Shown here piece after piece: positions 3,001 through 6,000 of a stretch of DNA of 46,993 nt. Source of the stretch: a virus. Lineage: Duplodnaviria > Heunggongvirae > Uroviricota > Caudoviricetes. Location of the stretch: IMG/VR virus record IMGVR_UViG_2522572023_000002; one strand, given 5' to 3'. Position numbers: made by a program. Positions within the stretch are counted from its first letter, which is position 1. Each line of letters begins with the position of its first letter.

Positions 3001-6000
3001 TGCGGTAAGTCCGTGTATGTTCCGTTTTTGCGGGCAAGATATTCTTCTTTCGTGATTTCAGTAGCCCCGGCAGCCAGCGCCTTGTCCAGACCAGAAAGTT
3101 TGTTTGCGCGACCGTATTTTTCGCCATCCTTGTCGGTGAAGAGGAAGTAGAACGGCCCCTCACGCTCTACAGATGGTTCGACTTCCACTTTGCATTCGGT
3201 TTTTTCGTTGTCCGGAATTGCCGTTTCCACTGCATCAGTTTCTGGTACTGGCGACGAGAGAGTATCAGTTGCGCTCTGATTTCTTCCTTCATCTTCAAAC
3301 ACGCCCTTTGTAGTCAGGTATTCAGTAATGTATTTGTTCAGTGCCACAGGGTCTTTGTGAATGTCGATCGGACGTTCACGGACAAGGCCAAAAATAGTCT
3401 GGCGGCTGTAGCGAAGCGCATCAGGTTGTTTGCGCATTGATGCGGAGATGCGCTTCCAGTCTTCGCGATCTCTGGCGATAACTTCATTTTTAGCCCAGCG
3501 AAGGATGCTGCCGTCAATGTTTCCGGCATCCGCATCACCAGGCCAGAGATAGTAGGCCAGCTCCCTGTCCAGGGTTTTCCATGTCTGCTTGTATTCGCGA
3601 TGAATGGCGGCAGTTACAGGAGGGATTTTTTCTGCTGGGTTTTCAGTGTGCTGTCGGTTGGCTTTGGCGCGGGCAAGATCAACAACAGACGTGTATTTTC
3701 CAGTCTCTTTGCGCTCTGCGTCCTGCCGTTTTTTCCAGTTACGTAATTCAGCCTGAATTTCGGGCCATTTGGTACCCGGCTTACATTTGTGTTTAACCCA
3801 TCCGATAGCGAACAGTTTGCGTTCCGGATACATAGCGTTAATTTCAGGCGTTTTCATCAGTGCTTCAACGATATGCCCGTCAAAGGTAGCCACGTCTTCT
3901 TGCAGTAATTCCTGCGCGTCAATCGCCATATCAACGGTGATGTTTTCACATGTACCGAACTTAACCAGGACCGCGTTCTGTACTTCAAGGGACAGCTTGT
4001 CAAAATTGACGTTAATAGGATCGGATTCTGGTTCGACCGGAATAAAGGAAGCGGATTCCTCATCCCAGCGGTTTTCCTGCATATATTCGGTATCCCAGGA
4101 GTCGATAGCAGGGCGGGGCATGCCGGGTTTATCTTCGCAGACAAGAAATTTATAAGCGCAGTCCTGAGCAGCAGGATATTGCTCCAGGAATTGCCAGGTA
4201 AATTTGGCACGGGCGCGGCGTTCATCACCGGCTTCAATGGCAGTGGCTACAGCAACTGCGCCCTCTTCTTTTATTGCCTGTTCGTCCGGAATGGCGGCGC
4301 AAATAAAGACTTTACTCATTTTGTTTTAACCTCATTACAGATTTAAGGGTGAACAAATCCCTGCCATTGCTGGCATATAAAAATGAAACCGGATATTAAT
4401 TACGGTGCTGTTTTAAAGTCCTGCCGGTATTTCGTTATTATTAGTGTGAGTAGTTTTATCTACCGGATAACAGTTACCGGGAATTTTTTGTTCTGCTGCT
4501 GCAGCCATGCATTCTTTCATTGAACCGTATAAGCCAGTCACCAGCTCAAGAGATTCGCCGGAAACAAGATAAACTGTCAGAACGAGTGCAAATGTTGTAT
4601 TCATTGTTTATATCCTTTTTGCAGCAGGTCCAGACGAGCCAGCATTGAAGGAATGCATACTTCATTTAACAGGTCCTGCTCGAGTTTTCTCTGCTTAATG
4701 GCGTCTTCAATAAATGTTTTGTCTCCAGTGATAACGCCAATTTCGAAACGAAGTTCAGACGTGCTGGCATTACATGATAACTTTTCCATTATCGCGTCCT
4801 CAACAATGAATTTTGTGATGCGGTGCCTGGTGCCTCCAGGTGACGTTAACCAGTTAACAATTAACGCCGGATACAGAGAATCCACCCATAACACTGTTTT
4901 TGGTTTTAACTGTTCCGCGTGCGCTGAGCCGCATTCACCGCATCACAAAATTCACTTTTAAAAAAGGGCGGCAGAGCAGTTACGGAGTAAAACTGATACC
5001 GCCAAATGTCACCAGAATATTGATAACAGAGGGCGTTGTAGCGGGGTTGTCACTTAAGCGTATGGTCAACCTGACAACCCGGTGTCCTCAACTGGGGAAG
5101 GAATAACCCCGCCATACTTACCGCCGCGCCATTTCGCGGATTGCCACAACCGGAAGCGCACGTTCGAAGAAATCTAACGACAAGCCTTCTAAGGGAAAGA
5201 GCTTCGCCGTACGCTTTCGCGTTGTGTGCCTGCTTTTAACCACGTCAGGCGAGGTGGTTTCCGTCGTTCCCCAACGACAGGAAATCTGTATAATCTGGAT
5301 ATCCCCAACAACAGGAAGGTGTTTTATATGGTGGTTCAAAAGAATTGTTCAGGTACTGGTAAGCCTGCGGACAGGTCGGACATTCCGAATACCAGGAAAC
5401 ATATACCTGAGAAAAACATTCGACCAAAACCATCTCCAGCTCCTTCAGAGGAGAGGGGGAACAGCAACAATCAAACAAGCAGGTGATGATATATGGACCG
5501 GGATGATATTCTTGACAGGGTTTTATATGGTTATTTTCTTGAACAACTATTCTCTGTAGCGACTGGTCGTCTCGATAAACTTCTCTCAGTGGTGAGTATT
5601 ATCCTCGGTTTATCTGTCATTGGTGGATTTATTCCTGAAGTTTCTGGAGTTCTCATTGTTGTGATAGCAACCGTTCAAACGATTTACGGATTCGGACAAA
5701 AGTCAGGTAACGCAATGAGAAAATCCGCAGAATATCTGCAGCTTTATGATGATGCAGAAAAATATTCCGATTCGGAATTGAAAATGCAGTTAAAGCTCCT
5801 GGAAAAAACAGATGATAATATTTGGTCGTCGCTTAAAGATATCGCAATCTTAAAAAACCAGATCAAAATAGGAATCTCCGTAGAACAACAAGAGAAACTG
5901 TCTGCAAAATCCAAATTGATGCGATTCCTTTGTGGTTAGGAATACCCAGATTGTTAAAGAGCATGCCGGATGCTTACCCGTGTCCGGCGAACGTATTCCA

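Follow-up and report, generated by a model that had tools for sequence, protein, structure and literature searches.

The window analysed here, a 46,993-nucleotide stretch of viral DNA (Caudoviricetes; IMG/VR record IMGVR_UViG_2522572023_000002), is a lambdoid prophage that carries a conserved two-gene operon, consisting of a gene for a proline-rich micropeptide followed by a gene for a protein with two transmembrane (TM) helices, hereafter the 2TM gene. The prophage belongs to the Rac/Qin type; within its early-left operon the two genes occupy, as a moron, the variable ‘sieB slot’. The cassette region is identical to that of a prophage of Escherichia coli O145:H28 RM12761. The two genes and the landmarks that bound the slot are the following:

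4966–5017, minus strand: DicF small RNA (sRNA), left landmark of the slot (Rfam RF00039, 76.9 bits, E = 2.6e-16).
5313–5319, plus strand: Shine-Dalgarno (SD) sequence AGGAAGG of the micropeptide gene, read from the sequence, 8 nt before the ATG.
5328–5486, plus strand: micropeptide gene, a conserved open reading frame (ORF) with an ATG start and a hydrophilic 52-aa product, MVVQKNCSGTGKPADRSDIPNTRKHIPEKNIRPKPSPAPSEERGNSNNQTSR.
5493–5939, plus strand: gene of the 148-aa 2TM protein, ATG start, RefSeq WP_025380291.1 (‘hypothetical protein’).
6038–6190, minus strand: DUF1391 gene (ydfA/ydaF-type), right landmark of the slot (Pfam DUF1391, E = 1.6e-28, and RefSeq).

The original prediction, made from the sequence alone, had described an AT-rich plus-strand cassette lying opposite to its neighbours between the DicF/dicB module and the repressor operon, and the RefSeq and Rfam landmarks place it exactly there. 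GC content is 0.355–0.42 across positions 5400–5900 and 0.49–0.535 in the flanks. The predicted elements, namely a TATAAT at 5289–5294, an AGGAAGG ribosome-binding site, a 52-codon Pro-rich ORF at 5328–5486 and a 148-aa protein with two adjacent TM helices at 5493–5939, are likewise all present. Of 13 distinct phage contexts, 12 have the pair running counter to the genes on either side; the contexts include lambdoid phages, P2/186-like phages (Fels-2 and loci L002, L016 and L066) and a location between Q and the holin gene. In this orientation and in its AT-richness, the cassette behaves as a typical moron.

The small ORF had been taken for a leader of the 148-aa gene. It is indeed there, but rather than the mere leader of one gene it is a conserved partner, standing in front of every family member examined (20 loci). 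A small ORF with an SD sequence, ending 3–18 nt before the 2TM start, occurs in all 19 family loci compared with 8 of 251 control ORFs of the same loci, and its Pro-rich C-terminal part in 18 of the 19 loci compared with 1 of the 251 controls. An AAGGAG-type SD lies at the same place in 19 of 19. Phage Fels-2 provides the 20th locus, and the length of the small ORF ranges from 23 to 52 aa. These loci comprise E. coli variants, Salmonella L002, L003, Providencia phage PSTNGR2lys, phage EKP1, Fels-2, prophages of Enterobacter, Klebsiella, Vibrio, Serratia and Edwardsiella, six IMG/VR contigs and two metagenome contigs; among them, the identity of the 2TM protein to that of the window falls as low as ~20%. 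The alignment of the 20 peptides shows a variable N-terminus followed by a core H-x-P-(1–4 residues)-[RK]-P-x-P-x-P-x-P, usually continued by K-[ED]-x-K; in the window peptide the conserved core reads H-I-P-EKNI-R-P-K-P-S-P-A-P.

Among the window, L003 and L002, the synonymous changes in the micropeptide gene keep E, K, R and P, and pN lies well below pS (ratio of nonsynonymous to synonymous change, dN/dS, 0.26–0.41), implying that selection acts on the micropeptide as a protein. The 2TM gene is under still stronger constraint (dN/dS 0.09, pN<pS), and taken together the two values rule out a chance ORF. The micropeptide stop codon TGA (5484–5486) lies inside the SD sequence AGGTGA of the 2TM gene (5481–5486), and a stop within the 2TM SD is common across loci (TGAGGT or TAAGGAG elsewhere), which points to translational coupling of both genes. 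The window micropeptide sequence has no exact match in a collection of 15 billion proteins, whereas the neighbouring 2TM sequence is found on 529 contigs, so the gene is systematically unannotated. No model in Pfam, PADLOC, PHROG or NCBIfam matched the window micropeptide, none in PHROG matched the other micropeptides, and our literature search, extended to proline-rich small proteins in abortive infection (Abi), retrieved no description of this family. The record of Fels-2 (L071, NC_010463.1) illustrates the annotation gap: at 2411–2959 (plus strand) it contains an unannotated micropeptide gene, MSDSDNFHVLPRPAPAPKPEPGQDKK, and a 152-aa family member, but both cassette genes are missing from the annotation, which lists instead an overlapping opposite-strand ORF, STM2733.1.

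The 148-aa protein has Kyte-Doolittle values above 1.6 (19-residue windows) over residues 27–68, with a break at P48-E49 that separates TM1 (~aa 29–47) from TM2 (~aa 50–68). An AlphaFold2 model computed from a 101-sequence alignment is confident (pLDDT 89.9, pTM 0.78) and shows a hairpin in which an acidic, amphipathic N-terminal segment and TM1 form one helix (3–44), followed by a 3-residue turn, TM2 (48–65) and four cytosolic helices. Both termini are placed in the cytoplasm because basic residues flank both cytoplasmic ends; the periplasmic loop measures only about 2–4 residues, and the conserved residues are nearly all cytoplasmic or within the TM helices. A word-indexed search returned 23 close relatives, all from E. 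coli or Salmonella, while a profile search of 1.84 billion cluster representatives retrieved 144 family representatives (counted at 50% identity, 101 of them in the family alignment), nearly all of them stand-alone proteins of 145–180 aa. They belong to temperate phages of Enterobacterales and Vibrio. PHROG 6315, to which that database assigns no function, matches the protein (E = 4e-24). Pfam searches gave no family for it and PADLOC-DB v2 only a spurious Csx1 match (E = 0.0096); no solved structure is related to it, and neither a scan of genome contigs with a narrow family alignment nor one of viral contigs with P0043 yielded a match. In several O145 strains (L068, RM9873-C1, 3345-4601), the 2TM gene is cut short near window position 5584 by an IS3-family element, and the DNA as far as the replication genes is gone; in the RM12761 prophage (L001, 365–2697) the integrase gene is split by a further copy of this insertion sequence.

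SLATT proteins are predicted pore-forming effectors of CBASS-, Thoeris- and DRT-type immunity, and SLATT is the only family that recurs across the searches made with the 2TM relatives. The models used were NCBIfam NF033632, NF033634 and NF033631 and Pfam PF18181–PF18186 and PF18160, with a curated cutoff of 55 bits for SLATT_4. Against NCBIfam SLATT_4 the window protein scored 14.5 bits (E = 0.024), below that cutoff, and the family hidden Markov model (HMM) consensus 29.6 bits (E = 5.3e-7), with residues 34–106 aligned on model positions 37–126. The same model was matched by 41 of the 101 family members (best E = 2.2e-5) and SLATT_1 by 11; 8 members matched the PADLOC CBASS ‘2TM effector’ model, and 4 and 3 members, respectively, the two DRT ‘RTasSLATT’ models. 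Of the eight subgroup consensuses, seven match some SLATT model in the same register, over TM1–TM2 and the next helices, so that the remote resemblance extends across the family. In agreement with this, most of the named top matches of the structural model in a Foldseek search of BFVD are giant-virus SLATT proteins (probability 0.95–1.0, TMq 0.5–0.67, E about 1e-2), and in UniProt the name ‘SLATT domain-containing’ is given to a protein that shares its 90%-identity cluster. The topology is also that of SLATT proteins, an adjacent TM pair flanked by cytoplasmic helices with both termini inside.

Since all scores remain under the curated cutoffs, the Pfam SLATT models are silent and no related solved structure was found, we describe the protein as SLATT-like only: it represents a remote, unclassified branch outside the defined SLATT families. 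The alternative of a SLATT or 2TM abortive-infection effector, left open in the original prediction, is thus the one favoured by profile and Foldseek evidence, at the superfamily level and below cutoffs. With known SLATT effectors (NCBIfam SLATT_1/4/5, CBASS 2TM, DRT10/UG17) the protein shares the two-TM hairpin with cytoplasmic flanking helices, consistent in-register sub-threshold matches and Foldseek neighbours, and location on a mobile element in a conflict context. By contrast, those effectors come with a sensor enzyme (a cyclase, a TIR protein or a reverse transcriptase), whereas the cassette has no SMODS, SLOG, TIR or reverse transcriptase partner and no module of noncoding RNA and reverse transcriptase; its constant partner is the 23–52-aa proline-rich peptide only. 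A DRT10-like architecture, in which a noncoding RNA lies upstream of SLATT, was ruled out, as a reverse transcriptase gene is found in none of the contexts.

The position of the cassette had been likened to that of superinfection-exclusion genes, and this comparison is upheld. In the Rac prophage of E. coli K-12 the order is kilR (minus), KilS sRNA (minus), sieB (plus), ydaF/DUF1391 (minus), ydaG, racR (minus) and ydaS/ydaT (plus); in the window it is dicB (minus), DicF (minus), cassette (plus), DUF1391 (minus), repressor (minus) and a YdaT-like gene (plus). Both have an sRNA to the left, DUF1391 to the right and an occupant on the opposite strand, and the ~130 nt upstream of the occupants are homologous. 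RefSeq annotates exonuclease VIII, DUF1482 and dicB to the left of the cassette (all minus strand), and DUF1391, RelE, RelB and a helix-turn-helix (HTH) repressor (all minus), then a YdaT-family gene and replication genes (plus), to the right; the cassette genes are flanked within the slot by the intervals 5018–5327 and 5940–6037.

The interval between the DicF/KilS sRNA and DUF1391 (in other loci, L017 3504–3671; L069; L070 520–731) is a polymorphic cargo slot of E. coli prophages. As read from a spread sample drawn from the 4595 E. coli genomes with the left flank, it holds ydfC and ydfB (the commonest content), sieB, other hypothetical proteins, an ECs_2282-type zinc-binding protein, or the cassette, which occurs in 89 of 5426 E. 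coli genomes. Further cargos are a 171-aa coiled-coil/Zn-ribbon protein and a pair of 70-aa and 212-aa proteins.

Common location does not extend to common protein family. The suggestion that the 148-aa protein might be of SieB type failed: Pfam SieB (PF14163, gathering threshold 26 bits) gave no match at E<=1, while Rac SieB, used as a control, scored 109.4 bits (E = 1.5e-31) against it; SieB is not among the 25 most-matched of the 40 families recorded for the 101 relatives; and hhalign of the 101-sequence family profile against Rac SieB returned a probability of about 0.4 over 9 aligned columns. Membership in the SieB family was rejected on these grounds, so that HMM searches and structure prediction leave neither SieB nor any Pfam family, but a sub-threshold SLATT_4 relation and a confident 2TM hairpin. 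The cassette and SieB (of Rac, P22 and lambda) do resemble each other in occupying an early-left slot between a cell-division-inhibitor/sRNA module and DUF1391, in being oriented against the operon behind a homologous upstream module, and in encoding a small inner-membrane protein with two TM helices, expressed (for the cassette, presumably) from the prophage. On the basis of slot, orientation, two N-proximal TM helices, size (148 versus 162 aa) and promoter region one could still imagine a highly divergent SieB. We find this scarcely credible in view of the Pfam and hhalign results; moreover, the TM helices of SieB lie nearer the N-terminus, its C-terminal domain is different, no sequence or profile relation is detectable, and SieB has no upstream micropeptide gene.

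What the cassette does share with sieB is an upstream module, whose parts are the following:

5228–5257, plus strand: hairpin GCCTG (5228–5232)…CAGGC (5246–5250), whose loop CCAC (5240–5243) can pair with GTGG (5254–5257) (RNAalifold).
5257–5285, plus strand: 9-bp hairpin GTTTCCGTC / GACAGGAAAT, enclosing the first CCCCAACGACA copy, directly 5' of the -10 (RNAalifold).
5289–5294, plus strand: -10-like TATAAT with a poor -35, a promoter predicted from the sequence.

The ~130 nt before the micropeptide ATG can be aligned both to the sequence preceding Rac sieB and to the corresponding stretches in front of the Salmonella, Enterobacter and Serratia cassettes, the parts following in the order GCCTG…CAGGC hairpin, 9-bp hairpin, -10, GGATAT, second CCCCAACAACA and SD. 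Direct repeats flank the TATAAT, CCCCAACGACA at 5269–5279 and CCCCAACAACA at 5303–5313 (2 found, 0.10 expected), and the -10 (TATAAT/TAATCT) with GGATAT-CCCCAACAACA is kept in 9 aligned loci including Rac sieB, and also in O157:H7 (L070). In O157:H7 strain 1130 this module stands in front of the gene for an unrelated soluble protein of 171 aa. Because other plus-strand cargos share this one ~130-nt module, the predicted plus-strand promoter is a shared platform of the polymorphic slot and not private to the cassette. The original prediction of a promoter belonging to the 148-aa gene is thus right about a -10, which is conserved in homologous upstream regions, and has to be revised in that the -35 is poor and the module is common to sieB and other cargos.

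The hairpins are conserved from Rac sieB to Serratia, and both covary. The first changes from GCCTG/CAGGC to GCCGG/CCGGC, with CCAC/GTGG replaced by CTAC/GTAG in L002, and its loop CCAC may form a pseudoknot with the downstream GTGG. Seven pairs of the 9-bp hairpin show compensatory double changes across 9 loci. Folded as a single sequence it does no better than shuffles, and neither do the mRNA and the upstream region (z -0.8 to -1.4). No Rfam family matches the hairpins at 5228–5285. The counts of covarying pairs are equal on both strands, so that covariation does not decide the acting strand; the hairpins may act in DNA, in a plus-strand RNA starting further upstream, or in a minus-strand DicF precursor.

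Two further elements on the minus strand, to the right of the cassette, concern transcription in the opposite direction:

5951–5988, minus strand: rrn-type boxA TGCTCTTTAACAA (5951–5963, exact boxA match) with adjoining hairpin GCCGGATGCTTACCCGTGTCCGGC (5965–5988).
6367–6408, minus strand: early-left promoter-like site, TG-extended, with -35 TTTACA (6395–6390) and -10 TATTGT (6372–6367), from a promoter scan.

One perfect boxA was found where 0.05 would be expected by chance; a boxA lies at the corresponding place in L003, in the Enterobacter loci L007–L011 and in L057, and a hairpin of the GCCGGATGCTTACCCGTGTCCGGC type recurs near the cassette in 11 loci. By comparison with the known rrn/lambda boxA consensus, boxA and hairpin are likely an antitermination (nut-like) signal of the early-left operon. 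Seven other loci (L012, L059–L062, L064, L066) have the same type of hairpin 81–112 nt 5' of the micropeptide gene, and we saw no obvious N gene here to accompany a possible nut-like site. The palindromes AATAGCACTGCTATT (6369–6383) and AATAGTAATGCTATT (6394–6408) overlap the -10 and -35 of the early-left site and are probable operators, which would place it under control of the repressor. This site would drive DUF1391, then the cassette in antisense, then DicF and dicB; together with the boxA, this suggests that transcription upon induction should read antisense through the cassette. We infer that such read-through would silence the cassette during the lytic growth of the phage itself. Antisense control of P22 sieB, reportedly described by Ranade and Poteete in 1993, offers a comparison.

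Building on what was observed or computed (gene structure, two-gene linkage, purifying selection, position, orientation, fold and family relations), we propose with moderate confidence that the cassette is a prophage-encoded superinfection-exclusion or abortive-infection module acting via the membrane, as suggested by its slot, the SLATT relation and its moron behaviour. In a lysogen, the plus-strand promoter module would express micropeptide and 2TM protein. Upon infection by a heterologous phage, the 2TM protein would oligomerise and compromise the membrane, or block a membrane step of infection, and the micropeptide would be its obligate partner, as a regulator, a sensor or a device that couples 2TM translation. 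When the resident prophage is induced, antitermination-competent early-left transcription, controlled by the repressor, would run antisense through the cassette and silence it. Lysogen expression, membrane damage, the anti-phage role, the role of the micropeptide and antisense silencing are in this proposal what we infer from the former set of data.

Several observations weigh against this proposal. The best consensus score against SLATT_4 stays far from the curated cutoff (29.6 versus 55 bits), no consensus matched any Pfam SLATT model, and Pfam SLATT_4 was matched by 1 of 101 members, at 0.041. No SMODS, SLOG, TIR, cyclase or reverse transcriptase gene lies within 4–8 kb in any of the 13 contexts. 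No defence-model library covers the 2TM family, and our literature searches with the family, its accession, its PHROG identifier and the Fels-2 tag STM2734 retrieved no paper. A simple sigma-70 consensus scan did not list the plus-strand promoter, because its -35 is poor, and the covarying hairpins overlap that -35 region. Across loci, the probability that the SD and AUG of the 2TM gene are unpaired varies from 0.22 to 0.92, which implies that no conserved RNA structure sequesters the 2TM start. The micropeptide, finally, can lose its conserved part. In a naturally occurring allele its Pro-rich stretch is missing through a 118-bp deletion between two CAAGCAGGTG repeats (loci L043–L045, L051, L052 and L055, some 35 nt 5' of the 2TM start; E. 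coli genomes 08-00022, OkiPb01695, N96, 06-00048 and OkiPb01678), and the 2TM ORF is apparently intact in three IMG/VR loci with this allele (L043–L045) and in five complete genomes. In favour of the proposal, and of a dependence of the 2TM protein on its partner, damaging changes in the 2TM gene, either V61D in TM2 with E104G (and Q133H) or a frameshift, occur in 3 of 6 loci of the deletion lineage, while a truncated 2TM gene occurs in 0 of 31 loci with a full micropeptide; this contrast is compatible with loss of 2TM function once the peptide is gone, but the deletion loci probably derive from one event and are not independent observations.

The deletion allele also bears on the idea that the pair is a toxin–antitoxin (TA) or addiction module, or a host-killing module of the phage itself, in which the micropeptide would be the labile antitoxin of a membrane toxin and no anti-phage role would exist. 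The antitoxin-first order, the translational coupling and the strong SD on the small gene fit such a module, as do the mobile element and the adjoining RelBE pair, and SLATT-type proteins are toxic effectors (bioRxiv 10.64898/2026.04.29.721553). In gene order, SD strength, coupling and mobility the cassette indeed follows the logic of type II TA/Abi pairs such as RnlAB. It differs from them in that its upstream product is far smaller and has no DNA-binding fold, and in the natural loss of the conserved part of the micropeptide without loss of the 2TM ORF. An intact 2TM ORF alongside the deletion allele argues against the micropeptide as a strictly essential antitoxin, with the caveat that a short ORF remains in this allele and overlaps the start of the 2TM gene, whose expression may be lowered as a result. 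The type II arrangement, in which the antitoxin is indispensable as long as the toxin is intact, is therefore weakened by L043–L045 and the five genomes. The cassette moreover opposes the lytic operons and has its own predicted promoter, which argues against a role in the phage’s own lytic programme. All this makes a pure TA or host-killing module a distinctly improbable explanation. An inhibitor resembling an antitoxin fits the gene order and the coupling; a strictly essential antitoxin is unlikely.

We favour instead a trans-acting micropeptide partner of the 2TM protein, whose effect may be positive or negative. The converse possibility is that the small ORF is a cis-acting leader only, whose Pro stretch slows or stalls ribosomes in dependence on elongation factor P (EF-P) and thereby gates 2TM translation, the peptide having no function in trans. 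Runs from PPP to PPPPPPPP are present in many homologues (L002, L003, L005, L006), the motif lies 9–21 residues before the stop and would be within the exit tunnel at termination, the stop overlaps the 2TM SD in most loci, the N-terminal part of the peptide varies freely in length and sequence, and carriers of the deletion allele tolerate an intact 2TM gene. However, several subfamilies, including that of the window, have only P-x-P arrangements with no consecutive prolines (RPKPSPAP, RPAPKPEPKP, YRPTDEPKP), and positions other than proline are conserved, namely the His, the Arg/Lys that precedes the first Pro and the K-E/D tail. Anywhere from 9 to 21 codons separate the motif from the stop and from the 2TM SD, a poor fit to an arrest of fixed geometry, and the 2TM start lacks a conserved sequestering structure. 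A leader acting exclusively in cis thus seems unlikely.

The topology of the 2TM protein is informative about a further explanation, superinfection exclusion of the non-abortive kind, in which a membrane protein blocks DNA entry or an envelope step and the cell survives, as with P22 SieA, T4 Imm and HK97 gp15. Like these, the 2TM protein is a small, prophage-borne inner-membrane protein that is presumably transcribed independently, and it comes from a moron in an exclusion slot. By contrast, it has almost no periplasmic exposure and belongs to a two-gene architecture, its conserved residues being nearly all cytoplasmic or in the TM helices; none of the three shows homology to it in PHROGs or Pfam, and its affinities in sequence and fold are to SLATT effectors and not to SieA or Imm. 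The known occupant of the slot, SieB, also acts late and abortively, P22 SieB stopping macromolecular synthesis midway through superinfection (PMC10883804). We hold a block of entry with survival of the cell to be rather improbable.

Returning to an exclusion or abortive module with a trans-acting peptide, what is new here is a SLATT-like protein paired with a micropeptide instead of an enzyme partner, unlike every characterised SLATT system, the function of the pair being hypothetical. SLATT proteins have been presented as predicted pore-forming toxins and as required effectors of DRT10, with their activation mechanism as an open question (bioRxiv 10.64898/2026.04.29.721553). Tentatively, and with clearly less confidence than for the module as such, the cassette could represent a minimal sensor-less system in which a Pro-rich micropeptide of 23–52 aa gates, or senses for, a SLATT-like pore; this would be a new two-gene exclusion or Abi system, widespread among temperate phages of Enterobacterales and Vibrio, with Fels-2 and prophages of Shiga toxin-producing E. 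coli (STEC) included, and overlooked so far because annotations never list the micropeptide. The micropeptide might report on the state of translation, by a polyproline/EF-P or proline-rich antimicrobial peptide (PrAMP)-like interaction with the ribosome, or serve as bait for a phage protein.

Some features of the neighbouring genes can be added. A RelE/ParE toxin and a RelB antitoxin are encoded at 6463–6944 (minus strand), directly 3' of the HTH repressor gene (6962–7462) on the same strand; the pair ends at a terminator-like hairpin (6448–6431) and looks co-transcribed with the immunity repressor. Tad5 is an inhibitor of type I Thoeris. Residues 106–159 of the repressor (minus strand) gave a sub-threshold match to Pfam Tad5 (18.3 bits versus 27, E = 0.0027) that is probably noise. 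Between dicB and DicF, at 4812–4952 (minus strand), lies a sub-threshold Rfam match to the STnc100 sRNA (37.4 bits against a gathering threshold of 47, E = 1.3e-5). In the replication region, a 370-aa protein (8322–9434, plus strand) contains a perfect (DKDT)x5 that derives from a 12-nt tandem repeat at about 8740–8800.

If the cassette is an exclusion or Abi module, a SLATT-type effector would need only a micropeptide and could dispense with the cyclase, TIR or reverse transcriptase found with every characterised SLATT; at 200 codons, such a two-component system would offer the simplest way into the question of SLATT activation. Further defence genes of E. coli, STEC among them, can be looked for in the interval between DicF/KilS and DUF1391 with its common promoter platform, and in the micropeptide the pangenome of E. 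coli and Salmonella gains a small protein that is conserved, under selection and systematically missed by annotation.

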